Shown here piece by piece: positions 258 through 58,648 of a stretch of DNA of 64,000 nucleotides. Within the stretch, counting starts at the first letter, position 1, and every line of letters starts with the position of its first letter. A model generated the notes under the pieces. The model did no database searches. It saw only the letters and a list, made by a program, of their open reading frames with translations, and was not told the origin of the DNA. The translations under genes were made by a program, and so were the position numbers. The DNA is from a virus (Duplodnaviria; Caudoviricetes): the IMG/VR virus record IMGVR_UViG_3300032007_000009. One strand, 5' to 3'.

Positions 258-623
258 ATGAAACATTTACAAGATTATATTGTTGAATCTTCAAAAATTA
301 ATGAAGGTGAAACAACATCTAAAACTATTACTTTTGATTTTACAGATTTAGAAAATGCAGAAGAAACTCTTAACTCTCTTAAAGATAAAGAAGGTGTGAC
401 TGTTGAAGAAAATAAACTTACATTAACTATTAATTCAGATAATGTAGATAAATTAGATACTGTACAAGACATTCTTCAACAATTTTGCAGTACAATAAGA
501 AATTCTAGTAAAAGAACTAATAATGAAGAATATGCACAAAAAACTGTAGAATTTGAAAAGAAAGTTAAAGAAATGAATGATGCAATTGATGAAATTAAGA
601 ATCCTCAAAATGAAGAAGAATAA
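258..623 (+). CDS. putative internal head protein with capsid-targeting-like N-terminal tag
   Basis: N-term MKHLQDYIVE; acidic; TATAAATA at 224-231 upstream. Confidence 0.6.
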   Translation: MKHLQDYIVESSKINEGETTSKTITFDFTDLENAEETLNSLKDKEGVTVEENKLTLTINSDNVDKLDTVQDILQQFCSTIRNSSKRTNNEEYAQKTVEFEKKVKEMNDAIDEIKNPQNEEE

Positions 624-7657: not shown

Positions 7658-7698
7658 ATATTAATATTATTTATATATAAAAATAAATAAAGATACTG

Positions 7699-17912: not shown

Positions 17913-18064
17913 TAAAAATCAAATAAGATATTACTATTTATATAAAAATAAATAAAACTTCAGATTATTGAGATTTAAATTGGTAAAAAATGATTACATA
18001 AAAAAATATAATATCAAATTTTTAAAATCTATTTTAAATTATAAATATAATAAATGTAAATATT

Positions 18065-22954: not shown

Positions 22955-23272
22955 ATGGAACAAATAATTTCAAAAGATATTCTTTTAACAGCAGGATTTG
23001 AAGATATTACTTATGATTATGAAAAACAATTTCATAAAGAATATGATGATTTAGATGATTATGTTATATTAAGACGTTGTACTGATGATGTAGATAAAAA
23101 TCCTGGGAAAACATTGAAGCTTGATATTGATAATGGATTAACGAATAGTGGCCGTGCTTGGTATTTACATATTGATAATTGTGATTGTTGTTCAATTGGT
23201 TCGGCAGAAATTAATACAATTGAACAGTTTAATAAATTAATGGAAATATTTGAAAGTAAATTTAGATTATGA
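22955..23272 (+). CDS. hypothetical protein
   Basis: 105-aa coupled ORF. Confidence 0.75.
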   Translation: MEQIISKDILLTAGFEDITYDYEKQFHKEYDDLDDYVILRRCTDDVDKNPGKTLKLDIDNGLTNSGRAWYLHIDNCDCCSIGSAEINTIEQFNKLMEIFESKFRL

Positions 23273-23775
23273 AAAATATAATAGACATATTATCTGATAT
23301 ATATAATAGATTATATGATTGGAGTTGGCCCATTGGATTTTTTGGTTTTATTGGAATATTAGTTGCAACAGGAATTACTCATAATCAAAATATATTTATC
23401 ATAGGTTCAATTACATTAACTGTATTTTATGTATTTATATTTGGGTATATGTGGTTATATCCATTTGAATATCTTAGTGAAAGATTTACTTTATGGATTC
23501 ATTCGTTCAATAAATATAAGTTATCTAAAAATGAAGTTAAATTATGGAATAATATAATTCAAAAAGCACAAGTCGGATATAATGAATGGTGGGATATAAC
23601 AAAAGGAAATGATATGTGTGGTCCTTGGATTAAAGATTATACAGAAGAAGAAAATAACTTATTAGATAAAATACATAAATATTTTTATGGAGATGGATGG
23701 TATGTTTCTATGCCGATAAGTTGTGCTCAAGTAAATTATGTTATGTATGAAGATATAAAAAATAAAGTCAAATAA
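23269..23775 (+). CDS. membrane protein with two TM helices
   Basis: two hydrophobic segments in the N-terminal half. Confidence 0.75.
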   Translation: MKNIIDILSDIYNRLYDWSWPIGFFGFIGILVATGITHNQNIFIIGSITLTVFYVFIFGYMWLYPFEYLSERFTLWIHSFNKYKLSKNEVKLWNNIIQKAQVGYNEWWDITKGNDMCGPWIKDYTEEENNLLDKIHKYFYGDGWYVSMPISCAQVNYVMYEDIKNKVK

Positions 23776-24638: not shown

Positions 24639-24661
24639 TATTTATTTTTAAATAAATAAAC

Positions 24662-25003
24662 ATGAATACTGATATGCAATCAATTGTTGATTTTATTTTA
24701 AGAGAAGAAGCTATTAAAGAAGAACTTTATATTAAGCAAACAATAATGGAAACAAAAGGTGATCCTATTGATGAACAATGGCTTAATGATGAAAAACCTG
24801 TAATGACAAAAGATGGTCGTCAAGTAATTATTACAGAAATTGATATGAAAGAAGTACCCAATATTATTCATGGTCAAGTAAAAATGAAAACAAAATTATT
24901 TGATTATGAATGGTTAGATGATGGTACATGTCAAAAAGCACTTGACCAATTAGGTAATCCAAAGAAACCTGAAGAAGCAGATAATTTAGTAAAAGCAATT
25001 TAA
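24662..25003 (+). CDS. hypothetical protein, possible tagged internal protein
   Basis: MQSIVDFILRE near N-term; TTTATTTTTA upstream; PVMTKDGRQV motif. Confidence 0.7.
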   Translation: MNTDMQSIVDFILREEAIKEELYIKQTIMETKGDPIDEQWLNDEKPVMTKDGRQVIITEIDMKEVPNIIHGQVKMKTKLFDYEWLDDGTCQKALDQLGNPKKPEEADNLVKAI

Positions 25004-35554: not shown

Positions 35555-35667
35555 AATTATAATATTCTATTTTTATTAAAAATAATTAATCTTTATATCT
35601 TATAAAATAATTTACATTTGACTATATTAAATTTATAAATTTGTAAAGAAAAACACATTAAATTAAA

Positions 35668-45130: not shown

Positions 45131-45778
45131 TTATAAGTTATTATATTCTTTTTGTAAAGAATTAATTTTTGTAGACCTTTTAATATTCAAATATGCTATT
45201 GTTAGTTCTTTTTCATATCTAGGATTTGATGCATATCTACCACCACCCTTAGTTACATATTTAGTTAATAAATGTTGTTCTGTTTTACCTTTAACTAAAT
45301 AATATTTTTTTAGAACTTGACAATAATGATTAATTGCTTTATCATAAGAATCATATTTATGTTTCATAACACCAAACATTGATCTTTTAGATGATTCTCT
45401 ACCAATACCCATAGTACCGAAATTAGTTTCAATTTGTGTCTGGGCCATCATAAAGCATATATCAATATTATGATCTAAACCAAATTGTACTAAATATTTT
45501 GGAATGAATTTGTTTGATTTAGGAGCCTTCCTATTTATGTATTTACTAACTGCACTGATTAATTCAGCTTTAATACTATCTTTATAATATACAGAATCAT
45601 ATTGTATTATATTTGGTATTGTTTTTTGTACTACACATGTTTTCTGAATATTATTTTCATTCTGATTAGTTATATTTGAACTACCATATACATATGATAA
45701 ACAAAAAATAACTAAAAATATTAATACAAAAAAAGATCTCTTGATTCTCTTGAATCTCGTGTTGTTTGTTTGTTCCAT
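45131..45778 (-). CDS. membrane-anchored murein hydrolase (glucosaminidase/GH73-like), putative endolysin
   Basis: N-terminal TM; MAQTQIETNFG, SMFGV, YASNPRY. Confidence 0.7.
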   Translation of the reverse strand: MEQTNNTRFKRIKRSFFVLIFLVIFCLSYVYGSSNITNQNENNIQKTCVVQKTIPNIIQYDSVYYKDSIKAELISAVSKYINRKAPKSNKFIPKYLVQFGLDHNIDICFMMAQTQIETNFGTMGIGRESSKRSMFGVMKHKYDSYDKAINHYCQVLKKYYLVKGKTEQHLLTKYVTKGGGRYASNPRYEKELTIAYLNIKRSTKINSLQKEYNNL

Positions 45779-46013
45779 AATTATTGTTTTACATTTTAAG
45801 CTTATATTTACCGCCTTATTATAAAACTCCTGTCACAAGTATATATAACTCGACTTAGCCAAAACTTTACACAACTTTCTGTGCAAATGTCACTTCATTT
45901 GACTCTTGAAAATCTAGTTGCTAAACTATATTTTATAATATAGTACTTTTATAAAAATAATAAATTTATATTATTTTAAATTTTATTTTTATAAAAAGGT
46001 ATATATTATAGAG

Positions 46014-46478
46014 GTGAGCAAGATATACGAAAATAAAATAAAAAATAATAAACCAAAAAGGAATAGTCGTTACCATCAAGGATATGTTCCACAAAAATTC
46101 TGTAGTAAATTATTTCAATCTGTAAAAGGTGAACCAATCATATATCGTTCAGGTTTAGAACTACAATTTATACAGTTTTGTGAGAATAATCCAAAGATAC
46201 GAAAATGGGCAAGTGAACCTATTAGTATTAAATATAAATGTAGATTAGATGGCAATGAACATGATTATTACCCAGATTATGTTTTGGAAACAATAGATGG
46301 AAGTAAAATAATAGTTGAAGTAAAACCTTATGGTCAAACAATAAAACCCGATGCAGTTGATTCATTATGGCTTAAAGAAGCATGGATACGAAATTGCGAT
46401 AAATGGAAAGCTGCAAATGAATTTGCTGAAAAAAATAATGCAAAATTTATAATAGTTACAGAAAAATTTTTTGAATAA
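46014..46478 (+). CDS. head completion nuclease (T4 gp4-like, TnsA N-terminal fold)
   Basis: IYRSGLE..FCENNP..KWASEP..YYPDY..IVEVKP..KWKAA..FIIVTE. Confidence 0.85.
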   Translation: MSKIYENKIKNNKPKRNSRYHQGYVPQKFCSKLFQSVKGEPIIYRSGLELQFIQFCENNPKIRKWASEPISIKYKCRLDGNEHDYYPDYVLETIDGSKIIVEVKPYGQTIKPDAVDSLWLKEAWIRNCDKWKAANEFAEKNNAKFIIVTEKFFE

Positions 46479-46596: not shown

Positions 46597-46923
46597 ATGA
46601 AAACTATAGATAAATATATTATAGAAAAATCTGAAGTAAATGAATTTTTTAAAAAACAAGATGAGTTTACAAAAAAGATGATTAATATGTGGAAAAAGGA
46701 TGAACGTCTTAAACCATTTGATCTATATTTTAAATGGAAGAATCATGATATATCTACTGGGGAGTGGAGAAAAATAAGCAAAGAAAATATTCGTAAAATG
46801 AGATTTACAGCATCAGATATGCTTAATGATGAATATGATAAAGAAAACCCAGATGAAGAATTAATACAGATATTAGATGCAATAGAAATGGAACTTATAA
46901 ATATAGAAGGTCTTTTTAAATAA
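46597..46923 (+). CDS. putative tagged internal head protein
   Basis: MKTIDKYIIE N-term. Confidence 0.6.
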   Translation: MKTIDKYIIEKSEVNEFFKKQDEFTKKMINMWKKDERLKPFDLYFKWKNHDISTGEWRKISKENIRKMRFTASDMLNDEYDKENPDEELIQILDAIEMELINIEGLFK

Positions 46924-47375
46924 TGATTTATATAACACCAGATAATAAAAAAAGAAAAAATAATAAATATAAATCAATATTTTTTGCAGGAACTATAGAT
47001 AATGGAAATTCTATAAATTGGCAGGAAGAACTTTCTAAATTATTGGAACAACTTAATGTCAATATATATAGTCCAAGATGTTTAAATTGGAATCCTAATT
47101 GTACAAAGAATGAATTAATTAATCAGATTAAATGGGAGCAAAAACATTTAGATAATTCCGATATGATTATTATGGTTTTATTAGATAATTCAAAATCTCC
47201 TGTTAGTTTACTTGAATTAGGGTTATATGCAAAAAGTAAAAAGATAATAGTTTTTTGTACAGATAAATTTTATAGATATGATAATGTACAATTAACATGT
47301 GAAAAATATAATATACCATTAATTAATAGTACAGATATTGATATAATAGTAGAAAACATAATTAAATATATATAA
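46923..47375 (+). CDS. nucleoside 2-deoxyribosyltransferase-like protein
   Basis: IFFAGTID...WQ...SPR...QIKWE..HLD...SPVSLLELGL. Confidence 0.85.
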   Translation: MIYITPDNKKRKNNKYKSIFFAGTIDNGNSINWQEELSKLLEQLNVNIYSPRCLNWNPNCTKNELINQIKWEQKHLDNSDMIIMVLLDNSKSPVSLLELGLYAKSKKIIVFCTDKFYRYDNVQLTCEKYNIPLINSTDIDIIVENIIKYI

Positions 47376-47899
47376 TGAAACGATTATCATATATTATAGA
47401 AAAGGGTATAGAAAAGGGTGGAGCTAAAATTACTAACTCTGTTGATAATACTGATGAATATGATACAGTAAAACAAATTACTCAAGATACAGAAACACAT
47501 TATGTATCTGATTATGGGGATTCATCAAGATTATTAGATACTATGCGAGAACTTGGTCTTTTAGAGAAAGATCATGGTGATGGCGGTGTTTTATATCCTA
47601 ATGGATTGCAAGGTATATTAACTTATTGGTTAAGTTTTTCAAATATGCCTACATTATGTCGATTCTTAGTAGCATTTGATAAATATGCTGAGAAATTCTC
47701 TTACGATAAAGTTCATGATGGACAATGGCATATGTGTTTCGATATTCATGATGATCCTTTAACTGGTGTTGATAATAAGACAGTTACATATTTATTACAA
47801 TATAAATCAAAAACAAAGGATCTTGATGAAATTGATAAAGCTATTGATGATTTATGTGAAGAACTAAAAAATAAATGGGGTGATTATCCAGGAAAATAA
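47375..47899 (+). CDS. putative tagged internal head protein
   Basis: MKRLSYIIE N-term. Confidence 0.55.
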   Translation: MKRLSYIIEKGIEKGGAKITNSVDNTDEYDTVKQITQDTETHYVSDYGDSSRLLDTMRELGLLEKDHGDGGVLYPNGLQGILTYWLSFSNMPTLCRFLVAFDKYAEKFSYDKVHDGQWHMCFDIHDDPLTGVDNKTVTYLLQYKSKTKDLDEIDKAIDDLCEELKNKWGDYPGK

Positions 47900-47948
47900 A
47901 TTAATGAAATAGAAACATAAAGATTTAAAATAAAATATATAGAGGTAA

Positions 47949-48014
47949 TATATCAAATATACTGCTTATATTTGTAAAGTCTGTGAAAAATGGCATTTAG
48001 GAATTAAAAAATAA
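47949..48014 (+). pseudogene. start-less remnant of a small Zn-ribbon gene
   Basis: reads YIKYTAYICKVCEKWHLGIKK* with an in-frame TAA just upstream. Confidence 0.4.
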
Positions 48015-48041
48015 ATTAAATAAATAAATACATAAACAATT

Positions 48042-48809
48042 ATGAAATATATAAAAAAATATGAAAATGGTACAGCATATAATGCTGATAGTTTAATATT
48101 ACCTAATATATCTTTAATATCATCAGATAATAGTTTACATATGAATCCTGATACTAATACATCTTCTCAATATGATTATGTTGAAATAGGAGGAATTAAA
48201 TGGGCTACAAAAAATTTAGGTGCAACAAGAATAGGAGATTATGGATTATTTTTCCAATGGGGTGATACACAAGGTTATACTTATCAACAATTACTTAATA
48301 ATGAACATAATTTATCGATAGAAAATCATACATTATATAATTCTGAATCTAATAATTCAGAAGATGCAATTATAAAATATAATGAGACAGATCAAAAAGA
48401 AGAATTAGAATTAATTGATGATCCTGTTCATGCAGCATTAGGTGGTAATTGGAGAACACCAACTGAAACTGAATATATTACTTTATTTGAACATACAAAA
48501 CAAATATGGGTATATAATTATAATAATACAATTGGTGGTCTTTTACTTATTGATAGTAGTGATGGTGGTAAACAATTATATTTTCCTGCATGTGGGTATT
48601 TTGAACCAATTAATGCATCTCAAAATAATTGGGAGAGTAGTAACGAATATGCTAAATATTTGACTAGTACCGTATCTGGATTTTGTAATGGTATTGAAGT
48701 TGATATTATGGAATTCTTTGAAGATAAAGATGACTATCCTATTAATTATACTAATTTTACTTATGCATTACCAGTTCGAGGTATAATAGATGATAATTTA
48801 AATAATTAA
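48042..48809 (+). CDS. FISUMP/DUF1566-like domain protein
   Basis: YVEIGGIKWATKNLGA, FQWG, GGNWRTPT, LYFPACG, PVRGI. Confidence 0.75.
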   Translation: MKYIKKYENGTAYNADSLILPNISLISSDNSLHMNPDTNTSSQYDYVEIGGIKWATKNLGATRIGDYGLFFQWGDTQGYTYQQLLNNEHNLSIENHTLYNSESNNSEDAIIKYNETDQKEELELIDDPVHAALGGNWRTPTETEYITLFEHTKQIWVYNYNNTIGGLLLIDSSDGGKQLYFPACGYFEPINASQNNWESSNEYAKYLTSTVSGFCNGIEVDIMEFFEDKDDYPINYTNFTYALPVRGIIDDNLNN

Positions 48810-48811
48810 AT

Positions 48812-49615
48812 ATGACATCTTGTATAGTTACATTTATAAAAAATGAACATGAATATCTTGACGAATGGATTCAATATCATTTGAATTTAGGTATAAATCA
48901 TATATTTATATTTGAAGATATTGATAGTTTAAGTCATAAAAAAATTATTGACAAATATTCTTCAGATAATGTTACATTAAATAATGTATCAATATTAAAT
49001 ATTAATAAATCTAATTATGGGCATAGTTGGGATAAACTTAGACAAGATATATATTTTAGATTTGGATTGTTCTGGGTTAAAACCAATTATACCTATAATT
49101 GGTGTTTTCCTATTGATAATGATGAATATATAACTTTATCTAATAATGATTATACATTAGTATCTATTTTAAATAAATATTCTGATTATGATGCTGTAGT
49201 ATTATATTGGCAAAACTATAATGCTAATGGACATATAACAAAACCTGATTATACAAATAATGGACTTATTGAGACTTATACTCAAAAATGTGAACGACCA
49301 CATAAAGATCCTAATTGGAAGAATACTAAAATAATGTATAATATGAAAACATATAAAAAATATTATTATATAGCTTCACATTCATTTTATAAATTAATTA
49401 ATTGGTGTAAATCAGATTTTTCAAAAGAATTAGGCAATATTACATATGATAATATTTATTTAAGACATTATATTACTAAATCATGGGAAGAATATGTTTG
49501 GAAATTAAAAGTTAGAGGGATGTTTCATGTAAACCATAGAAATTATGATGATTTTTTTATAATAAATAAAGATTTAATTTCAAGAAAAGATGAATTAATC
49601 AAAATGATAAATTAA
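48812..49615 (+). CDS. GT-A glycosyltransferase (GT2/GT92-like)
   Basis: KNEHEYLDEWIQYHLNLGINHIFIFED; IDNDEY (DxD); LRHYITKSWEE. Confidence 0.85.
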   Translation: MTSCIVTFIKNEHEYLDEWIQYHLNLGINHIFIFEDIDSLSHKKIIDKYSSDNVTLNNVSILNINKSNYGHSWDKLRQDIYFRFGLFWVKTNYTYNWCFPIDNDEYITLSNNDYTLVSILNKYSDYDAVVLYWQNYNANGHITKPDYTNNGLIETYTQKCERPHKDPNWKNTKIMYNMKTYKKYYYIASHSFYKLINWCKSDFSKELGNITYDNIYLRHYITKSWEEYVWKLKVRGMFHVNHRNYDDFFIINKDLISRKDELIKMIN

Positions 49616-49636
49616 TAAATAATAGTATATTATATT

Positions 49637-50131
49637 ATGAAATCAATTAATAATTTTTTAACAGAAGAAAAATTAGAAAATATTTATACCAATTTGGCAA
49701 AAGGTACAATTTTATATATTGTACTAGATAAAGATAAATGGACAGATAATAGTAATAAACATAAATGTTATCAAATAACAGTTAAAGATGTTACAAATAG
49801 AGGTAAAGAAACTTTATTTAGTGGAAATAAAGTAAATACTACTTCTGTTACACTTGAATCAAATCCATTTAAGATATCTAACTTTTTAATATTTGATAAA
49901 CAAAATGAAACAAAAAAGGAATTTTTTGTAAAACGTATACATGCAGAAGGATCAATTTGGTATTTTGCAGGAATATCTAAAGAAGCAGTTATCAGTGCTT
50001 TAGATTCTAAATATCGTAAACAATTAGAAGAAGTAGATGATAAGATATTAAAACTTCAAAAGGATATTGAAGAGTTAAATACAGAAAAACAACAAATTGA
50101 AGATAAATTAAAAATTGAACTCGAAGATTAA
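49637..50131 (+). CDS. putative tagged internal head protein with C-terminal coiled coil
   Basis: MKSINNFLTE N-term. Confidence 0.55.
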   Translation: MKSINNFLTEEKLENIYTNLAKGTILYIVLDKDKWTDNSNKHKCYQITVKDVTNRGKETLFSGNKVNTTSVTLESNPFKISNFLIFDKQNETKKEFFVKRIHAEGSIWYFAGISKEAVISALDSKYRKQLEEVDDKILKLQKDIEELNTEKQQIEDKLKIELED

Positions 50132-50133
50132 TA

Positions 50134-50601
50134 ATGAAAAGATATTCAGAGTTATTTGAAAATAAAGACGATATTAAACATTACGTAGATGGTATTTTAG
50201 TATCTGAGGATAATAGAATACTAATTTTACGTCGTGCTAATTATATGAAGTTATTTGGTGGTTGTTGGGGATTTGTTGGTGGCTCTATAGATAAAAAAGA
50301 TAAAGATAGTAAATCTGCTATTATAAGAGAAATTAAAGAAGAGACAGGTTTAGAACTAACATTTAACGAACAACAAAAAATGAAATCTATAGATAAACAA
50401 GGACATGAAAAAGAAGATGGTTCAATAGGTTCTGATACAGAATATTGGTTAATCCAATTAGAAACAACTCCAGATATTAAAATATCTCGTGAACATTCAA
50501 AATATGAATGGGTTGGACCTGAAGAAATAAAAGAACGTAATCGTAAATTTATGTCAGATGTTTTTCATTACATACAAAAATATTTTAACGGTGATTTGTA
50601 A
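50134..50601 (+). CDS. NUDIX hydrolase
   Basis: GG..D...SAIIREIKEETGL Nudix box; ISREHSKYEWV. Confidence 0.9.
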   Translation: MKRYSELFENKDDIKHYVDGILVSEDNRILILRRANYMKLFGGCWGFVGGSIDKKDKDSKSAIIREIKEETGLELTFNEQQKMKSIDKQGHEKEDGSIGSDTEYWLIQLETTPDIKISREHSKYEWVGPEEIKERNRKFMSDVFHYIQKYFNGDL

Positions 50602-51266
50602 TGCCAATTATACATAAACCTGAACAAACAACATTAGGACACGTTTTTGATCTTAAGTCATTAGATAAGAAGGTATATACAGATGAAGAAATTAAATCTT
50701 TCAGATTGGATGAATCAATAAATAATCATCCATTAGCAAGAAAACCAACCTCTATAAGATCTAAATTAGCGTATAAAGAAATATTAAGAAACTTAAAACC
50801 AACAAAGAAATATGTATTACCTGGACAGGTAGTATTATTTAATTATTCACAACCAAAATTTAAGGAAGAACTTGAATATTATGATAATTATCCATTTTGT
50901 ATAAGTTTTGGTATTATAAGAACTGAAGATGGTAATATTCGTGAATGCATGTTAAATCTCCATTATTATCCCCCATTTACAAGAGCACGAATATTACAAC
51001 AAGTATTTACACATTTTAGACCATATTTTGAAAAATATTTTAATGAAGCAGGTACAAAACCAAATACTGTTATGTCTTATTCAATGTTAAAACATTTACT
51101 TAAGGTTAATCAGAAAATTGCATTTGGAACAAAAATGTATATTCCTGTACTTAGAGGTATTACATATAATATTCCTTCAAGGTTATTCCCAACAGCCTTT
51201 TACACAGAAGGTAAATTTAGTAAAGCAACATTACAACAAATATATCATTTTTGGAGACAATTTTAA
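50601..51266 (+). CDS. DNA end protector protein (T4 gp2-like)
   Basis: PGQVVLFNYSQPKFKEELEYYDNYP...LNLHYYPP..RA. Confidence 0.75.
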   Translation: MPIIHKPEQTTLGHVFDLKSLDKKVYTDEEIKSFRLDESINNHPLARKPTSIRSKLAYKEILRNLKPTKKYVLPGQVVLFNYSQPKFKEELEYYDNYPFCISFGIIRTEDGNIRECMLNLHYYPPFTRARILQQVFTHFRPYFEKYFNEAGTKPNTVMSYSMLKHLLKVNQKIAFGTKMYIPVLRGITYNIPSRLFPTAFYTEGKFSKATLQQIYHFWRQF

Positions 51267-51268
51267 TT

Positions 51269-52030
51269 ATGAAATACTTAAAACTTTTTTCAACACAAAC
51301 TCAATATCAATCATATATAAAAAATAATTGGATATCTCCACATATCTATAAAATACAAGAAAATAAAAATGTTGATTATGAAGATAAATATATACCACTT
51401 GAATACATAAGTAGTACTCAAACAGGTGGACAGTATATTGATTTAGGATGTCATTTAATGGAAAACACTGACGATATTAAAATTGATATTAAATTTAATA
51501 TTAAAGGTGTAGGTAAATCATCTTCAGGTGGCGATCCTAATTTGGCAACATTAATTTCATCACAACCAGAAGTTAGTCCATGGCCAGGATTTATATTGAG
51601 ACGTCAAGCGGTGGATAATTATAGAATTCATTTACAAACAAAATGGCAGTTTACAAATTCTGCAAAACGAGTTGGTGATGCTAAATATGATTCTAAATAT
51701 TTATCATATGTACAATCTGCTAATAATTGGATAAGTGTTGATTATCCAGGTATATATGAGTTTACAGAAATATTAGATAACATACCACAATCACAAGTCA
51801 ATGATTGTACATGTACATTATTCTGTGCATTAGATAGTTCAAATAATCCTTTTAGATATTGTTATGCTGATTTATATTATTTGAAATTTACAAAGGGAGA
51901 AACTGTTGTAAGAGATTTAGTTCCTGTTTTAAATAAACGTAATATTCCTGGTTTATATGACAAAGTAAATAAAAAATTCTATCCATCACAAGGAGATACA
52001 AATTTTGTAGCTGGTCCTATAAAATCATAA
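51269..52030 (+). CDS. putative lectin-like (beta-sandwich) accessory virion protein (start reassigned to ATG 51269)
   Basis: LEYISS..GQYIDLG ... VRDLVPV....PGLYDKVNKKFY....NFVAGP, a motif set seen in tail-associated proteins. Confidence 0.55.
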   Translation: MKYLKLFSTQTQYQSYIKNNWISPHIYKIQENKNVDYEDKYIPLEYISSTQTGGQYIDLGCHLMENTDDIKIDIKFNIKGVGKSSSGGDPNLATLISSQPEVSPWPGFILRRQAVDNYRIHLQTKWQFTNSAKRVGDAKYDSKYLSYVQSANNWISVDYPGIYEFTEILDNIPQSQVNDCTCTLFCALDSSNNPFRYCYADLYYLKFTKGETVVRDLVPVLNKRNIPGLYDKVNKKFYPSQGDTNFVAGPIKS

Positions 52031-52036
52031 ATAAAT

Positions 52037-52065
52037 TTTATTTTTATAAAATACTTATATAAATA
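52037..52065 (+). promoter_or_regulatory. late-promoter candidate (TTTATTTTTA plus TATAAATA)
   Basis: directly upstream of five consecutive tagged genes. Confidence 0.45.
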
Positions 52066-52073
52066 ATGAATAT

Positions 52074-52664
52074 ATGAAAGATTTAAGAACATTTATATAT
52101 GAATCATCTAATGAATTAATATCAATGATTAAAAGAATGATGGGTTCAGTTGATTATAATAAATTGCAATCGTGTTCTGAGCAAGATCAAGATAAATTTG
52201 ATAAACAAAAAGAAAATGAACTTTTAATTACAAAAGATTTTAATGAAGGTGATTTTACAATTATTGGAACTACTGAATATTATTCAAAAGTAAAAGATGG
52301 TGATTTTAATAAATTAAGTATAAAAGAAAAAAGTAAATTTAATACTCAAAATGGCGACTTAATTATTATGAAAAATGATAAACCAGTTTATTTTATTGAT
52401 GTTAAGATATCTGATAAATATTTAGGAACAATATCATTAGGATCATTAGTTAATTTCAATAAGGACGGATATTATCTTTTAATTTGTAAAACTGGTAAAT
52501 TCTTTAAAGTAATATCACATAAAGAAGTGGAAGATGCCGTTAAAAATAATAAACTTAATTTAAATGCTCCTGTTGATTCATATAAAGGATATGATGTAAA
52601 ATGGGAAGGTGAAGATATGACATCTGAATGGTTTATTAAAGGAAATGATCTTAGAAAAATATAA
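52074..52664 (+). CDS. tagged protein with PD-(D/E)XK nuclease-like motif
   Basis: MKDLRTFIYE; NGDLII...YFIDVKIS. Confidence 0.5.
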   Translation: MKDLRTFIYESSNELISMIKRMMGSVDYNKLQSCSEQDQDKFDKQKENELLITKDFNEGDFTIIGTTEYYSKVKDGDFNKLSIKEKSKFNTQNGDLIIMKNDKPVYFIDVKISDKYLGTISLGSLVNFNKDGYYLLICKTGKFFKVISHKEVEDAVKNNKLNLNAPVDSYKGYDVKWEGEDMTSEWFIKGNDLRKI

Positions 52665-52672
52665 TTATAATT

Positions 52673-53728
52673 ATGAAAAGATTTAGTCAAATAAATGAAG
52701 TATGTGCTACATCTTCAAAAAATCCTGGAAATTTATTAGTCAATACAGGAGTAACTAATCATTATACACCTATTCAAAATATATTAACAAATATTAAAAA
52801 TCTTTATTGTGTACAATTAGGTATTGTTGCAGATCAAGGTGAAGATGGAGTTTCTATTAAGTTAACTAGTTCATTATTTACAAATGAGCGTAAGGTTAAT
52901 GAATTATTATATACATGTCTTTATAATGATGTCAATTTTGAACAGTCTTCATTAGCTGCATATATACAAGCACAAGGATTAACTAAAATAACTAATGTTA
53001 ATATTGGAGGATATATTATTGTTTATTTTTCACCTGATGATATATCTACTGCAGAAGATCCATATTCAATGTGTAAATCATGTTGTCCAACTCCTGAAGA
53101 AGCTTGTGAATCAATTTTAGATGAATTTGAAATTACATCTATGATTAAAGAAGATGATGGTGAGGAAGAAGTAAAGAATATAACTTTAGAAAAAATAATG
53201 GAACTTATTGATTCTAAAGATAAAGTTAAAGCTGCTAAACAATTAGAATTATTAGTATCTCAAGAAATTAGTTTACCACGTGAATTTTATTTTGCTGCTA
53301 TTAAATTTAAGACTGATGACGAAGCAATAGCATTACGTTGGAAATATACTAAGAAGCTTCCTGGGGGTAAATCAACAGAAAATACTCGTTCAATTCTTCA
53401 TATATTTGGTAAAGGAGATGAAGGAATATGGGTACAAGATTTTGCTGAAGATTCTATTGTTACATTACCTGATGAAGTTAAGAAACTTATTGAATCAGTA
53501 TTAGATTTATTAGAAGCTAAAGAAACTGATGACCCTTCAATCTTTAAACTTGATGGTGAACGTAGAGAACGTAAGGATGATGAAGATGATAAAGATAAGG
53601 ATGATGACAATAAAGACGATAAAAATAAAGACAATAATAAAGAAGAAAAGAAAGATAAGAAGACTGATGATAATGATGACGATGGTGAAGATGATTCTTC
53701 TCGTGGTGATGATACAGATCTTCTTTAA
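52673..53728 (+). CDS. tagged internal/core-like protein with D/K-rich tail
   Basis: MKRFSQINE; low-complexity DDEDDKDKDDD C-terminus. Confidence 0.6.
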   Translation: MKRFSQINEVCATSSKNPGNLLVNTGVTNHYTPIQNILTNIKNLYCVQLGIVADQGEDGVSIKLTSSLFTNERKVNELLYTCLYNDVNFEQSSLAAYIQAQGLTKITNVNIGGYIIVYFSPDDISTAEDPYSMCKSCCPTPEEACESILDEFEITSMIKEDDGEEEVKNITLEKIMELIDSKDKVKAAKQLELLVSQEISLPREFYFAAIKFKTDDEAIALRWKYTKKLPGGKSTENTRSILHIFGKGDEGIWVQDFAEDSIVTLPDEVKKLIESVLDLLEAKETDDPSIFKLDGERRERKDDEDDKDKDDDNKDDKNKDNNKEEKKDKKTDDNDDDGEDDSSRGDDTDLL

Positions 53729-53741
53729 TTAAATATAAATT

Positions 53742-54101
53742 ATGAAAGATATTCGTATATTCTTGGAAGGTAAGACTATTGATGAAGTAACAATAAAAGA
53801 TATCAAAATAAAAAAAGAAGTTGATGTTGTATATTATTGCTATGATAAAGAATCATTAGATAAAGTTTCAAAACAATATGAACATGTTGGTAAGTATTGG
53901 ATAGATAAAGGTTTCTTCCTTGCAACATTAAAGAATAAATCAACATGGGTTGTTAATATGGATAAAGAATTTCATATGCATACTTGGAGACCTAATGCTG
54001 ATTTTATTGAATATAATGATAATGAAGAAGAATATACATATAAAGAACTTCTTGAATTACTTGAAAAAGGAGAAACAATGCTAGTTGTGATTAATAAATA
54101 A
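53742..54101 (+). CDS. putative tagged internal head protein
   Basis: MKDIRIFLE N-term. Confidence 0.55.
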   Translation: MKDIRIFLEGKTIDEVTIKDIKIKKEVDVVYYCYDKESLDKVSKQYEHVGKYWIDKGFFLATLKNKSTWVVNMDKEFHMHTWRPNADFIEYNDNEEEYTYKELLELLEKGETMLVVINK

Positions 54102-54118
54102 TATATATAAATAAAATT

Positions 54119-54661
54119 ATGAAAAAATTAAATGAATACATATCAATTAACGAAGGTGTAAAATTACCTGATGATAAACTTAATATCATTGAAAAATTTT
54201 TAAATGATGAAAATAGATATGACTTTAATAAAACTATTGTTTGTGATGTATTAAATCAGTTTGATAATGTAGCAACAGAAATTATTGCAGATATTGCGGG
54301 ATATTTAGTTGAAGCATACATTTGGGATCAAATGCATAAACTTATTACTAATAAAGAATTTTGTGATGTATGGTTTGATGGTAATAATAAGAGTAGTGAA
54401 GAATTTAAATTAAGTCCTTTGGCAAGACGAAACAATAAAGATAATAATGGATCTGCAATATATTGGGATTTTACTATTAATGGAATAGATGAAAAATTTG
54501 AAATTAAAGCACGTTCAACAAAAGAAGGTAAGAAAAATGGTGGATATCGTTTTACTGTAAATCAATCATCAGATAAAAATTTGATTTATATTTTAGTTGA
54601 ATATTCAATATCTGGAGATGAAATTAATATAGGAAATATTAAAATAACAAGAAAATTATAA
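54119..54661 (+). CDS. tagged restriction-endonuclease-like (PD-(D/E)XK, DUF3883-like) protein
   Basis: MKKLNEYISINE; GYLVE...YWDF...FEIKA...FTVNQ. Confidence 0.55.
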   Translation: MKKLNEYISINEGVKLPDDKLNIIEKFLNDENRYDFNKTIVCDVLNQFDNVATEIIADIAGYLVEAYIWDQMHKLITNKEFCDVWFDGNNKSSEEFKLSPLARRNNKDNNGSAIYWDFTINGIDEKFEIKARSTKEGKKNGGYRFTVNQSSDKNLIYILVEYSISGDEINIGNIKITRKL

Positions 54662-54679
54662 ATATATAAAACGACATAA

Positions 54680-54880
54680 ATGAAATCATTAGAAGAATTT
54701 GTTATTGAATCGGAAAAACAAAATGAAGATGTATTTGTTGTTTATTTTGGAGATGGTGTAATGGAAAATTTCTATTATACTGAAGATGAAGCAAAAGCTA
54801 AAGTCGAAGAATTAAATAAAGAAAATTCTGATGCAAAGGCTTCATATAAAAAAGAATCAAAATCAAAAATTGAAAAATAA
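54680..54880 (+). CDS. small tagged internal protein
   Basis: MKSLEEFVIE N-term. Confidence 0.6.
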   Translation: MKSLEEFVIESEKQNEDVFVVYFGDGVMENFYYTEDEAKAKVEELNKENSDAKASYKKESKSKIEK

Positions 54881-54904
54881 AATATTTAATATAATATATA
54901 GTTA

Positions 54905-54936
54905 AGTAGGATATCATTGAGATATCCTACTATTTG
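54905..54936 (+). terminator. terminator ending the tagged-gene operon
   Basis: agtaggatatc-attga-gatatcctact. Confidence 0.75.
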
Positions 54937-55015
54937 TTTATATATTTGTTTATAACATATTGAATTATTTAAATAATTATTTCTATATTAAAACTGTTAA
55001 TTAATATTAATAATT

Positions 55016-55483
55016 ATGAAAGTATTTAGATTAAGACATAAAAAATATAAAGGAGATGTTGTTTTTGGTCTTCCTTCACCTTATAATGAAAGTGTAGGTG
55101 AAAAAAAGATTAATGAATTATTTAGTAAGATGAAACCATGGATGCATGCTGTACCTTATTATAAGAAAAGTAAATTTAGTTTTGTTTCATCTAATGCAAT
55201 ATTAACATTTTTAAATAATGGTAAGTTTACTGAAGAAGAATTGAATGATGTAAATAATAGTTTCTATGTTGAAATATATGAAGTAGAGATTTGGAGTGCA
55301 GGATTATCTAAATTTTTATGTACATATTTTGATGATGAAATAATTCCTGATACATATGATACTATTACTATAAAAGAATTAATTAATTGGACATATAAAA
55401 CTGTTTATCAGGATCCAGTTCCAAAAGCAGATATTAACTTGAGTAAAACATCATATTATTCAGATGTTAAATTGTATTATTAA
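55016..55483 (+). CDS. hypothetical protein
   Basis: 155 aa; CTATATT upstream. Confidence 0.75.
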   Translation: MKVFRLRHKKYKGDVVFGLPSPYNESVGEKKINELFSKMKPWMHAVPYYKKSKFSFVSSNAILTFLNNGKFTEEELNDVNNSFYVEIYEVEIWSAGLSKFLCTYFDDEIIPDTYDTITIKELINWTYKTVYQDPVPKADINLSKTSYYSDVKLYY

Positions 55484-55531
55484 TTTAATGATTATTATTT
55501 AAATTATAATTATAAATTTAATTTTTAAACT

Positions 55532-56011
55532 ATGAAATTTGGAAAAGATTTTTTGTTTAAAGAGTTAGTTAACACATTTGCGTATACTACAGCAACTCAA
55601 AATAGAGATGTATATACAGATGTAAGTATTAATGGTAGACGTTATACAAAATACGGTACATTGCAAGCTGTAACCTTTGTAGGTAATTTGTATAAGACTG
55701 GAGTTAAGGGTGATGGTTATCTTAAGGAAGATGGCGCTCCAGTAAATAAAAATGAAAAGTATGTATTGTCAATTGGTATGTCTAAACAGCATCCTTGCGA
55801 TACAAAGGTAAATAAAGAGTTAGGATATGAAATGGCAATGATGAATGCACTTAATAATCCTATCATTTTAATTGAAATTAATGATAAGTTTACTTATCGT
55901 CGTTTCAGAAATATTGTGGAAGATTATTTAAACACAATAAAACTAGAATTTATTAAAACAAAGCAAGAAATAATTGCTGAGGGTGGAAATCCTAAAAAAT
56001 ATAATAGATAA
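55532..56011 (+). CDS. conserved phage hypothetical protein
   Basis: GMSKQHPCD..NKELGYEMA, related to the motif in 18065. Confidence 0.75.
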   Translation: MKFGKDFLFKELVNTFAYTTATQNRDVYTDVSINGRRYTKYGTLQAVTFVGNLYKTGVKGDGYLKEDGAPVNKNEKYVLSIGMSKQHPCDTKVNKELGYEMAMMNALNNPIILIEINDKFTYRRFRNIVEDYLNTIKLEFIKTKQEIIAEGGNPKKYNR

Positions 56012-56018
56012 TAGTTAT

Positions 56019-56046
56019 AGACCTAATTTTATATTAGGTCTTTTTT
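56019..56046 (+). terminator. intrinsic terminator
   Basis: agacctaat-tttat-attaggtct followed by T-run. Confidence 0.8.
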
Positions 56047-56104
56047 AATATTTTTACAGAGTAAAACTATATTACAAAATATAAAAATATATGATATATA
56101 ATTA

Positions 56105-56866
56105 ATGAAAATTTTTAATGCATTTGGAATAATACCAACTAATACTTATTCATCAGCTGGTTCTGATTATTATATTCCTAATTTGAAAGATGAAAAGGAA
56201 ATCGAAGTAGCACTTAAGGCATTTGAAAAATCTTACGGAAAGACAACAGAAGAAATTGCTGAGATATACAATGAATTTAAAAAGACTTATGATCATATTG
56301 AAGAAGCTGCAAACTTAACTCATTTATTCTTAGCAACATATAATAAACAACTTGAGGCATTCAAGAAAAATAGTCTTGAAAGAGCAGTAACATTCTTTAT
56401 TAATAATTATGTAGTATATGATGTTAAGAAACATGTTGTAGGTATTGCAATGAAATTAAACGATACTTTGTTTATTAATTCAGGTGTTAAAGTTGCACTT
56501 ACTACTGCTTGGAATAATCATGGACCTAATACCGATAATTTATTAAAACTATTAGAAGCATTGGGTATTGGTATTTCAGGTTTATATGTAAATAAATCAG
56601 GTTGTGGTAATCGTGGATGGGATGTTCGCGCATGTTTGGTTGATGAAGATTATGCAGGATATGTACATCTTTCACAGTCATATACAAAGGATTTATTAGA
56701 TGAAGGACAAAATATTATTTATTGTGGTGATAAGTTAGTACAAATGATGCTTATTCCAATTATTCATACAAAATATGTTGATTCTACTGAAGCTGAATAT
56801 AATAAAATCATGGAAAATTCAAAACGTGGAGATTCAGGATTTGGTAGTTCAGATGTAAAACATTAA
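56105..56866 (+). CDS. dut: trimeric dUTPase with large insertion
   Basis: SAGSD, NKSG, LVDEDYAG, GDKLVQ, RGDSGFGSS. Confidence 0.85.
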   Translation: MKIFNAFGIIPTNTYSSAGSDYYIPNLKDEKEIEVALKAFEKSYGKTTEEIAEIYNEFKKTYDHIEEAANLTHLFLATYNKQLEAFKKNSLERAVTFFINNYVVYDVKKHVVGIAMKLNDTLFINSGVKVALTTAWNNHGPNTDNLLKLLEALGIGISGLYVNKSGCGNRGWDVRACLVDEDYAGYVHLSQSYTKDLLDEGQNIIYCGDKLVQMMLIPIIHTKYVDSTEAEYNKIMENSKRGDSGFGSSDVKH

Positions 56867-56876
56867 TATTCAAACA

Positions 56877-57281
56877 ATGCAAAAAATTGAATGTACAGTT
56901 AAAGATATTCCACAAGAAATAATGTGGAGTGATTTATTTGAATTTAGACTTAAAACAGGTGATATAAGATTTACTGAATGTGTAAATAATGTTGCATTTG
57001 GAAATAATAAAAATACAATATATATATCATTTATTGATTGGGGTGATGATTATCATATTATTGAACATATAAAACAAGAAAATTTTAATGATGGAATTGA
57101 AATTGCTTTAGCTGATAGATGTGGTTCAGTTGTTGCATTATTTGAATTTAATGATTGTATTATTAAAGATATTGCTTCAATTATTCTTGATTATTGTGGA
57201 AATTATAAAACACCAAAAAATCGTTATATTGCTTCAATTGAATATAATAAAGTTTATAAAATAAAACCAGATGAAGAATGA
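56877..57281 (+). CDS. hypothetical protein, weak tail-tube (gp19)-like C-terminal motif
   Basis: LADRCGSVVALFEFNDCII...LDY. Confidence 0.55.
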   Translation: MQKIECTVKDIPQEIMWSDLFEFRLKTGDIRFTECVNNVAFGNNKNTIYISFIDWGDDYHIIEHIKQENFNDGIEIALADRCGSVVALFEFNDCIIKDIASIILDYCGNYKTPKNRYIASIEYNKVYKIKPDEE

Positions 57282-57451
57282 TTACTCCAGGATTGTTATC
57301 AGAATTATATGATAAAGCAAAAGTCAATTATGAATTAGCAGAGAATGATTATTTATCAACAGATGATATTGATTATTTGAAAGAGATGTGTGTTCATTCA
57401 GGAGAAATGCTTGCATACGGAAAATTATTAGAAATGTTAATACATGAATAA
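57278..57451 (+). CDS. small hypothetical protein (57 aa), not in ORF track
   Basis: ATGA-coupled, MITPGLLSELYDKAK..., overlaps the next start. Confidence 0.6.
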   Translation: MITPGLLSELYDKAKVNYELAENDYLSTDDIDYLKEMCVHSGEMLAYGKLLEMLIHE

Positions 57452-57773
57452 GAAGAAAATTTATATATCATTACCTATTGCTTTTCAAGAAGATACTGTT
57501 TATGATAGAAATAATCAAGCTAAAGAATATCTTCAAAGAAAATATAGAAAATATGAATGGGTATCTCCAATAGATTCCAATCATATTGATGATGAAGCAT
57601 TGGGAAATCATTTAGCTATTGAACGTACTGCATATTATATGGGTAAAGATATTGAACAAGTAATTCTTTGTGATGCAATACTTATGTGTCCTGGATGGGA
57701 AAATTCAAAGGGATGTAAATGTGAGAAATATGTTGCTGAAACTTACGGTAAAGAAGTATTATATATGAAATAG
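57444..57773 (+). CDS. DUF4406 family (deoxyribosyltransferase-like fold) protein
   Basis: KIYISLPI...CDAILMCPGWENSKGCKCE. Confidence 0.8.
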   Translation: MNKKKIYISLPIAFQEDTVYDRNNQAKEYLQRKYRKYEWVSPIDSNHIDDEALGNHLAIERTAYYMGKDIEQVILCDAILMCPGWENSKGCKCEKYVAETYGKEVLYMK

Positions 57774-57774
57774 A

Positions 57775-57802
57775 AAATGGGAAGTTTTAAAGCTTCCCAT
57801 TT
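57775..57802. terminator. bidirectional terminator
   Basis: aaatgggaagt-tttaa-agcttcccattt. Confidence 0.75.
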
Positions 57803-57803
57803 G

Positions 57804-58103
57804 TTATGGTAATATATCAGTTAAATAACACCACTTATCTTGATCTGTTAATTTTTTTCTATTATTATCAGCAGTATATTCACCATCATTCATATAATCT
57901 GCAATTTTGACATTATTATATTTATCATAGTGCTTCTTATTATTAATTTCTCCACCAACAATAATAATTATAGGTATAATTTTATTATATTCTTTATCAC
58001 CAGGTTTAATAAATGATGAATCTTCTGGTAATTCAGAACCATTATGCCATAAATTTTTAGTATCAATTTTTGATTCTAAAATAAATTCATTAATATTTTT
58101 CAT
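57804..58103 (-). CDS. putative tagged internal head protein
   Basis: MKNINEFILE; LWH...ELP...KWCYLTDILP. Confidence 0.65.
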   Translation of the reverse strand: MKNINEFILESKIDTKNLWHNGSELPEDSSFIKPGDKEYNKIIPIIIIVGGEINNKKHYDKYNNVKIADYMNDGEYTADNNRKKLTDQDKWCYLTDILP

Positions 58104-58126
58104 GTATTTCGTAAAAATATATTTTA

Positions 58127-58531
58127 TTAAAAATTATTTGAAACTAATAAGAATGATGTATCATCTCCTTCTGTTGAACTTCCATTAATAATTATTACAT
58201 CTTTAAAATTAAATTTAAATATTTCAAATTCTGGTTCATCTTCATCTTCACCAATTGGAATATAATTTCCATCTTCCCAATAATCATTATCTGACATCCA
58301 TTCAGAAAAATCTCCAGTTACCATTGCAGATTCCCCATATGAAAATGTTAAATTTGTATCTACATTTTCAAATATTTCATTTATATCACTATTCTTTATT
58401 TTTTTATAAAAATTTTTAACTAATTTTTTTGCTTCTTCAAATGAAACATTTGTATTATCAAAATCAATATTTTTTAAGATTTTTGATAATTCATTTTTAT
58501 TTTCTAAAATAAACTCTTTTAAGTTTTTCAT
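58127..58531 (-). CDS. putative tagged internal head protein
   Basis: MKNLKEFILE; TTTATTTTTAAATATAAATA upstream. Confidence 0.65.
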   Translation of the reverse strand: MKNLKEFILENKNELSKILKNIDFDNTNVSFEEAKKLVKNFYKKIKNSDINEIFENVDTNLTFSYGESAMVTGDFSEWMSDNDYWEDGNYIPIGEDEDEPEFEIFKFNFKDVIIINGSSTEGDDTSFLLVSNNF

Positions 58532-58648
58532 ATTATTATTTTATTTATTTATATTTAAAAATAAATTAAACAAACAAATATATACTATTAAATTTGAATT
58601 TTTTAAATAATATGCATTAACTTACTATATTATAATATAATTTTATTG

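Follow-up and report, generated by a model that had tools for sequence, protein, structure and literature searches.

The locus examined here raises the question of why about a dozen proteins that look otherwise unrelated begin with almost the same ten residues. The window is a stretch of 64,000 nucleotides from a tailed virus (Caudoviricetes; IMG/VR record IMGVR_UViG_3300032007_000009) and corresponds to positions 106281-170280 of a 235,986-bp IMG/VR viral contig (G000) with 25.8% G+C. A sequence-only reading of the window had listed 12 firm N-termini of this kind, all of which are recovered here, and had likened them to the T4 capsid-targeting sequence (CTS). The likeness holds in sequence, in length, in the constrained positions 4, 7, 8 and 10, and in genomic setting. 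The leader reads M-K-x-(I/L)-x-x-(Y/F/W)-(I/L)-x-E, in most cases with Ser, Gly or Ala as the next residue, and is very probably the version of the T4 CTS used by the clade of phages to which the contig belongs. It very probably also serves as the functional counterpart of that sequence, which would target proteins to the prohead and then be removed after Glu10 by a gp21-type protease.

The genome-wide N-terminal scan suggested by the sequence-only reading gives a strong enrichment. A strict tag, defined as M-K-x-[ILVFMY]-x-x-[FYILVM]-[ILVFMT]-x-E at the start of an open reading frame (ORF), is present at 25 of 315 ORF starts, as compared with a mean of 0.34 and a maximum of 3 in 1000 shuffles in which residues 3-40 of every Met-Lys protein were permuted. 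The core motif is 139-fold more common at N-termini (position 2) than internally, and 31 strict starts are obtained when each ATG with an open frame behind it is scanned, independently of the gene caller; almost none of them has an in-frame upstream ATG. When 9- and 12-residue variants are counted, 34 genes (approximately 11% of the total) carry the tag and encode proteins of 63-411 residues. These genes are clustered, with 20 adjacent pairs as compared with 3.5 expected and a maximum of 10 in 5000 permutations.

At 25.8% G+C, the residues K, I, N, Y, F and E are enriched, which would favor an origin of the pattern in chance, in AT-rich composition or in a single paralogous family. This origin is already refuted by the shuffling result and by the bodies of the proteins: once residues 1-12 are removed, BLAST sorts the 34 proteins into 32 families, and only three DUF285 paralogs group together, which upholds the earlier claim that the proteins are unrelated beyond the tag. 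It is also contradicted by the identical DNA pattern, which is found 0 times in the AT-rich phage CP220 (27% G+C) and 0 to 3 times in nine other phages.

This comparison across genomes uses one identical back-translated DNA pattern, which matches 20 times in the contig and 27 times in a relative, G001 (376,291 bp, 98% complete, with a portal 85% identical to that of the contig), in which 34 strict tags are present. Elsewhere the pattern matches three times in T4, once in KVP40 and not at all at annotated gene starts in PAU; PTm1, Lak-B4, LR756500, GAP32, RaK2, Aeh1 and CP220 give no match or only stop-containing matches. In 16 further relatives, one to three tagged ORFs lie in each portal neighborhood. 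The expanded repertoire that had been proposed for this phage is therefore real and is approximately ten times that of T4 (20-27 matches per genome as compared with 3 by the same pattern, and approximately 34-36 by a broader definition). Such a roughly tenfold-expanded variant of the known T4 CTS system is new: the literature found on the CTS covers a handful of T4-type proteins and the long propeptides of phiKZ-like phages, and a term search of a paper on T4-like huge phages of the gut that are related to this clade gave no CTS passage.

A profile that avoids circularity was obtained from 901 ORFs of the contig and G001, with leaders selected only on Met1, Lys2 and Glu10. This combination occurs in 79 of the 901 ORFs, as compared with 10-20 when Glu is placed at positions 7-9 or 11-13 instead. 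Position 8 holds 1.95 bits of information (Ile in 55 of 79), position 4 holds 1.67 bits (Ile or Leu in 64 of 79) and position 7 holds 1.42 bits (Tyr or Phe in 51 of 79). The next-most informative positions are 3, which is polar, and 11, which is Ser, Gly or Ala, and the information decays beyond residue 11. The resulting consensus, M-K-x-(I/L)-x-(E/D/S/T)-(Y/F)-I-x-E-(S/G/A), resembles the T4 leaders.

The same positions persist within single protein families. In the family of a 196-residue tagged protein of the window (137 homologs, 51-100% identity), the leaders include MKNLKTFILE, MKTLKTYLFE, MKDLRKYIFE and MKSLKAYVSE, and in the family of the tagged NUDIX hydrolase (68-88% identity) they include MKHITDWINE, MKKLTDWINE and MKNLIDFIKE. 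In both families, positions 3, 5, 6 and 9 drift, whereas positions 4, 7, 8 and 10 persist. The NUDIX protein of the window begins with MKRYSELFE, which is one residue shorter than forms such as MKRYSDWITE. Approximately 120 NUDIX orthologs from elsewhere in the clade have canonical 10-mers. The variants of 9 and 12 residues belong to the same tag class.

A comparison with T4 reveals where this agreement lies. Read from AF158101, the T4 leaders are MKTYQEFIAE followed by Ala in ipII and ipIII, MAKINELLRE in gp24 and MELITELFDE in Alt. As in T4, a 10-residue N-terminal leader precedes otherwise unrelated proteins, with M1, K2, an often acidic residue 6, an aromatic residue 7, I/L at 8, E10 and a small residue 11; position 4 is I/L in the clade, whereas IPII and IPIII have Tyr. 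In the passage of PMC9026906 that cites Mullaney and Black 1996, suppressor substitutions in T4 IPIII assign residues 4 and 7 to targeting and residues 8 and 10 to processing. The positions conserved here are those mapped functionally in T4, and what the alignment establishes is their conservation, not their function, in this clade. The T4 CTS alone suffices to package foreign proteins (PMC3012670, PMC5694885).

Two subgroups of leaders depart from the canonical form. Tag variants with Asp10, MKNIIDILSD, MKNIANYIDD and MKSIEEIVKD, are present at window 23269-23775 and at genome positions 105907 (L006:18907) and 197761-198048 (L002:7761-8048). The cited passage of PMC9026906 (after Mullaney and Black 1996) also states that Asp10 in T4 blocks processing and leaves targeting intact, so the proteins with Asp10 might be packaged uncleaved. 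Additionally, eight proteins share an 18-residue leader, MKQIT(S/N)YI(Q/K)EGLRINKNT (L001:801-2709, L003:18866-19897 and L004:4914-6131; genome 801-2709 and 228866-231131), and beyond it only three of them, the DUF285 repeat proteins, align. This longer leader may form a sub-class of the tag that has a second function or is cleaved at a second site. The 9-, 12- and 18-residue sub-variants are a feature of the clade that sets it apart from T4.

The constraint can be traced to the peptide. Between unrelated tagged genes, nucleotide identity inside the tag is 0.64 at codon positions 1 and 2 and 0.58 at position 3; outside the tag it drops to background, at 0.41 in the 30 nucleotides upstream and 0.37 across the ten codons behind it, and codon choice follows genome usage. 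Selection acts on the peptide pattern, and the tag is not a nucleotide cassette. A nucleotide-level origin, in which the shared start is an initiation optimum without Shine-Dalgarno motifs or a recombining promoter-plus-start cassette and the peptide has no role, is accordingly highly improbable. It would suit the near absence of Shine-Dalgarno motifs genome-wide (15 of 315 genes, below the control window), and translation is generally favored by AAA as the second codon and by early codons rich in A/T. T4-type phages are also known to shuffle genes through regulatory cassettes (PMC2839356, PMC4122927). Beyond the identities and codon choice just given, this origin is opposed by the constraint on residue classes (I/L, Y/F/W, I and E) with synonymous or conservative changes within ortholog families, by the restriction of the tag to approximately 11% of genes, which are clustered, and by the zero count in AT-rich CP220.

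The bodies behind the leader are varied. Most of the tagged proteins are ORFans by PHROG and Pfam, and the recognizable ones comprise the NUDIX hydrolase, a ferritin/Dps-like protein, a MoxR-type AAA+ ATPase and the DUF285 repeat proteins. The leader is an add-on ahead of unrelated domains, because the recognizable domains begin downstream of it: position 1 of the ferritin profile aligns at residue 17, and the NUDIX domain starts at residue 19. The AlphaFold model of the 196-residue protein has a mean predicted local distance difference test score of 89, with residues 1-10 as the sole low-confidence block. Its body matches fusellovirus D212 (Z 7.3) and Hjc, HincII, EcoRV and RecU (Z 5-6), and residues D95 and D109-x-K111 are invariant in the family. 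The modeled body thus most resembles the PD-(D/E)xK nucleases, with scores below the level that would be conclusive alone. An hhalign comparison of the 180-residue tagged protein with this nuclease-like family found no relation.

The shared start might instead be an amphipathic helix that docks to a partner or compartment outside the capsid, such as a MoxR AAA+/VWA system or a host factor, or that acts as a signal for regulated degradation. The hydrophobic residues 4, 7 and 8 lie on one helix face, the model helix starts at residue 4, and one tagged protein is itself a MoxR-type ATPase; T4 gp61.1 also offers an example of such a start outside the proven head proteins. A docking role of this kind would leave unexplained the invariant Glu10 with its following small residue, the agreement with the mapped CTS positions of T4, the hydrophobic-x-Glu pattern that the protease has at residue 10 and the capsid protein at residue 41, and the promoter motif common to the head genes, the last two of which are described below. 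It is considered quite improbable. Export signals of the Sec, Tat or lipoprotein type were not found among the leaders: the highest hydropathy over 12 residues, taken within residues 1-32, has a median of 0.16 and reaches at most 1.83.

If the leader is a CTS-type propeptide, a protease that recognizes its end is expected in the lineage. Locating the prohead protease and comparing its sites, as the sequence-only reading had proposed, succeeds in G001 and 16 relatives, which have a gp21-type protease with matching hydrophobic-x-Glu sites, and not in the contig itself. In G001, a Peptidase_S77 protease is identified at 45.9 bits against a cut-off of 27 (E 8e-13) and is 29% identical to T4 gp21 over 120 residues. 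A Gp23-family capsid gene (E 3e-28) lies directly downstream, followed by sheath-like and tube-like genes, and the same protease-capsid pair is present in the 16 further relatives.

Candidate cleavage sites of the tag-end type are conserved in both proteins. The N-terminus of the protease has an invariant E10-T-L-G, for which the T4 gp21 counterpart is LLIE-TWG, the likely autocleavage site of that protein (PMC9026906), and the protease domain ends in an invariant L-N-E177. Unlike in T4, the protease is a fusion with an acidic coiled-coil tail in which QNWV-x-EEFAPEV is repeated 6-9 times in tandem, each repeat containing V-x-E (L056:790-2400 in G001; homologs L057-L070). This tail looks like a built-in scaffold, and the fusion may be chopped into peptides of approximately 12 residues. 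The capsid protein has a conserved 41-residue N-terminal segment that ends in I-H-E and is followed by Ser or Ala and then by a hypervariable Gly/Ala/Pro linker. The sites in the protease, its tail and the capsid protein are predicted to be cleaved in the same way as the end of the tag.

The position of the contig relative to G001 may explain why this module is missing from it. The contig is colinear with G001 from 272 kb through the end of G001, wrapping to approximately 87 kb, and by synteny the 87-272 kb block of G001, which includes the head module, falls beyond the contig ends. On this evidence, the lack of gp21 and gp23 is probably due to truncation of a genome of approximately 290-380 kb. 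The 196-residue tagged protein is identical in another contig of 289,687 bp. Membership in a T4-related lineage, with homologs of gp20, gp21, gp23, gp2 and gp4 as in T4, is evident from the gp20 portal, gp4, gp2 and gp6-like proteins in the contig and from gp23 and gp21 in the relatives. The portal has matches to phrog_213 and to 2439 records, most of them T4-like, and a large terminase is present in the contig together with the gp6-like baseplate wedge protein. The absence of Shine-Dalgarno motifs and the nearest named relatives, PTm1 and Lak, are compatible with a putative Bacteroidota host and do not establish it.

Several searches around the head module were negative or led to rejected candidates. 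Minus-strand clusters at genome 195-204 kb and 211-216 kb were considered as head modules and rejected, as they hold endolysin, RimK-like ATP-grasp, BspA-type leucine-rich repeat (LRR) and gp6-like baseplate genes. Three candidate capsid, protease or scaffold ORFs gave no matches to PDB sequences, PHROG and Pfam gave nothing for most of the large proteins of the window, and a megablast of the region against the phage collection gave no match.

The tagged genes may also be expressed with the head genes. The motif TTATTTTTA, usually followed by (T/A)ATA(T/A)A, occurs 27 times in the window as compared with 15.7 expected. It lies mostly 20-50 nucleotides upstream of the portal, protease, giant virion-type, candidate tail or baseplate, and gp4-like genes, 70 nucleotides upstream of the capsid gene, and ahead of the first gene in several tagged operons; no copy precedes the genes for DNA polymerase, ligase and helicase. 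Operons headed by the motif hold 23 of 34 tagged genes, whereas of the untagged genes 44 of 281 lie in such operons (p 5e-10); the corresponding counts for G001 are 18 of 36 and 86 of 550 (p 5e-6). TTATTTTTA is thus a candidate late promoter element, unlike the bare TATAAATA of T4. Of the upstream motifs named by the sequence-only reading, TTTATTTTTA is informative, whereas TATAAATA was rejected as a specific late signal, since it ranks 11th and 36th among 254 A/T-only 8-mers in the two genomes. The accompanying proposal of a modular payload is retained in its core, a tag of approximately ten codons of the T4 CTS type added before unrelated domains, and loses the TATAAATA late signal. Directly upstream of the protease-capsid pair in G001 (198967-212398; L038, L039) are two giant ORFs of 1614 and 2830 residues, each with TTATTTTTA.

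The genomic setting of the tagged genes is similar to that of the T4 internal protein genes. In T4, a few genes separate ipI from genes 2 and 4, and e and nudE are the neighbors of ipII and ipIII; in the contig, the gp4-like, gp2-like, NUDIX and endolysin genes are flanked by tagged genes. The clustering near gp4-like and gp2-like genes that had been noted earlier is confirmed by matches to T4 gp4 and gp2 at 46014-46478 and 50601-51266. In both systems, genes 2 and 4, a lysozyme gene and a NUDIX gene are thus found in the vicinity of tagged genes, and the neighborhood appears to echo the synteny of the T4 ip genes.

These observations suggest a route by which the tagged proteins would enter the head. 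The tagged proteins would be made together with the head proteins, the short amphipathic leader would dock them onto the prohead scaffolding core through residues 4 and 7, and the capsid shell would close around them. A gp21-type protease would then cut after Glu10, with the hydrophobic residue at position 8 as P3, and free the mature protein inside the head. In the last and least certain step, some or all of these proteins would exit with the DNA at infection. The contig may thus use a ten-codon, body-independent address on at least 32 unrelated families, a spread that would be possible because the address is only ten codons long and independent of the protein that it precedes. An unusually large and varied protein cargo is probably packed in the head, and by analogy with T4 it is plausible that these proteins stay in the mature head and are then ejected into the host; roles of the tagged proteins as effectors in anti-defense or host takeover are speculative.

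A different fate was considered, in which the leader is a removed propeptide on prohead core, scaffold or assembly factors that are degraded or expelled during maturation, with no lasting cargo and no injection. The 351-residue tagged protein, for which the ESM Atlas gave no usable match, has a D/K/E-rich tail that resembles both the tail of T4 gp67 and the acidic linker in the protease-scaffold protein of the clade. Part of the tagged set may therefore consist of core or scaffold components, not effectors. The mildly acidic, not basic, character of the tagged set points in the same direction. As an account of the whole set, this fate is unlikely: folded enzymes (the NUDIX, ferritin-like, AAA+ ATPase and nuclease-like proteins) are improbable scaffold, 32 unrelated families of which approximately 30% are common to close relatives would be unusual for essential assembly parts, and T4 leaders of the same kind lead to retained and ejected proteins (PMC3012670). 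Of 32 tagged proteins, 10 have a homolog in G001, and 9 of these 10 homologs keep the tag pattern; a faster turnover of tagged than of other small genes is not significant (29% compared with 44% shared with G001, p 0.12).

Several points weigh against a CTS-type role. The tag system in this clade is known from genome sequence alone, whereas that of T4 is not, and the gp21 protease and gp23 capsid genes were not found in the 236-kb contig, so their presence is deduced from relatives and synteny. In an AT-rich proteome, many hydrophobic-x-Glu sites arise by chance, and those in the capsid and scaffold proteins are suggestive through their conservation only. The tagged set is slightly acidic on average, with a slightly negative median net charge, whereas T4 IPII and IPIII are basic; PHROG and Pfam gave no matches to IPI, IPII or IPIII, and the set does not consist of homologs of these small basic proteins. 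Unlike that of T4, the clade's cargo is mostly acidic or neutral and includes recognizable enzymes. A CTS-like start alone is no proof of packaging, because T4 gp61.1 (AF158101 18966-19130, L054), a 54-residue hypothetical protein of the early region next to the primase gene that is not known to be packaged, starts with MKTFKEFIKE. Additionally, 11 of the 34 tagged genes are not assigned to a motif-headed operon.

Other phages package internal proteins by related or different means. The giant phages phiKZ, 201phi2-1 and SPN3US share with the clade a protease that cuts after Glu and have many head-internal proteins, with propeptides that are thought to target the prohead and with paralogs that can share N-termini (PMC5694885, PMC7411985); eight processed proteins were identified in one study of SPN3US (PMC5694885, PMC7411985). 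They are only distantly related to the clade, and their propeptides are mostly longer than 100 residues, with A/S/G-x-E sites and no uniform 10-residue address (PMC5694885). Long propeptides of this type are not found on the tagged proteins, whose leaders have 9-12 residues (18 in one subgroup) and I/L at P3. The Dar system of P1 is similar in that head-packaged anti-restriction proteins are delivered with the DNA, and differs in that, as far as the abstracts of PMC9024508 and PMC12810830 describe it, incorporation follows an ordered DarA/Hdf dependency, with no short shared cleavable leader and no gp21-type motif.

A broader proposal is offered tentatively, and on balance it is doubtful: the CTS may have been turned into a general, evolvable addressing system by which approximately 30-60 proteins per virion lineage, among them NUDIX, PD-(D/E)xK-like nuclease, ferritin/Dps-like and AAA+ proteins, are loaded and delivered with the DNA, which would make it the largest address-tagged viral cargo known. 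If this is true, the packaged and injected proteome could be read directly from genome sequence. If the leader works as in T4, the head-packaged proteins would become predictable from sequence for an entire clade of huge phages that are abundant in gut and rumen and uncultured, and the nuclease-like, NUDIX, ferritin-like and AAA+ proteins, with many ORFans, would form a list of candidate first-strike effectors. A ten-codon address would then suffice for fast recruitment of cargo, in keeping with the approximately 30% of tagged genes that are common to relatives with 85%-identical portals. The clade would also supply dozens of natural variants of the CTS, a sequence with which foreign proteins are already being loaded into the T4 capsid.

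Most of the 12 firm tags of the window lie in one plus-strand region and one minus-strand pair. The first plus-strand cluster is headed by TTATTTTTA at 45983-45991 (plus strand), approximately 25 nucleotides upstream of the untagged gp4-like head completion protein (46014-46478, plus strand, GTG start; PF08722, 34% identical to T4 gp4, E 5e-21). It is followed on the same strand by a 108-residue ORFan, MKTIDKYIIE (46597-46923), which has a tagged homolog in G001, by a 174-residue protein with the 9-residue variant MKRLSYIIE (47375-47899), by a 164-residue protein, MKSINNFLTE (49637-50131), and by the 155-residue NUDIX hydrolase with the 9-residue variant MKRYSELFE (50134-50601; PF00293, E 3e-14). 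The untagged gp2-like DNA end protector follows (50601-51266, plus strand; 30% identical to T4 gp2, E 3e-8).

A second TTATTTTTA site at 52038-52046 (plus strand) lies 36 nucleotides upstream of a five-gene tagged operon on the plus strand. This operon comprises the 196-residue protein with the nuclease-like fold model, MKDLRTFIYE (52074-52664), the 351-residue protein with the 9-residue variant MKRFSQINE and the long D/K/E-rich C-terminal tail (52673-53728), a 119-residue protein with the 9-residue variant MKDIRIFLE (53742-54101), the 180-residue protein with the 12-residue variant MKKLNEYISINE (54119-54661) and a 66-residue protein, MKSLEEFVIE (54680-54880). On the minus strand, TTATTTTTA at 58556-58564 lies 33 nucleotides upstream of a two-gene tagged operon, which is headed by a 134-residue protein, MKNLKEFILE (58127-58531), and includes a 99-residue protein, MKNINEFILE (57804-58103). 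The remaining firm tag, MKHLQDYIVE, begins a 121-residue protein at 258-623 (plus strand), whose ortholog in G001 retains the tag.

A further start at 24662, which the sequence-only reading had listed as possible, remains a doubtful candidate. The ORF at 24662-25003 (plus strand) is atypical, as its first ATG gives MNTDMQSIVDFILRE, Lys2 is lacking and Glu falls at position 11 from an internal Met; read from that internal Met, the start is tag-like. The upstream motif at 24642-24650 precedes it, and this is one of the further TTATTTTTA sites in the window, the others being on the minus strand at 7678-7686, 17943-17951 and 35577-35585.

Other genes are interspersed with the tagged ones. Nucleoside 2-deoxyribosyltransferase-like genes (PF15891, DUF4406) are present at 46923-47375 and 57444-57773, a family 2/92 glycosyltransferase gene is present at 48812-49615, and a glucosaminidase-domain gene lies just upstream of the tagged genes at 45131-45778 (minus strand). 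Additionally, another common start, MKY(I/L)K-x-(F/Y), is carried by several untagged proteins whose genes are interleaved with the tagged ones, including a BspA-type LRR protein; it occurs in the window at 48042-48809 and 51251-52030 (an internal MKYLKLF) and in the genome at 87685-88992 and 190178-190636, both on the minus strand.

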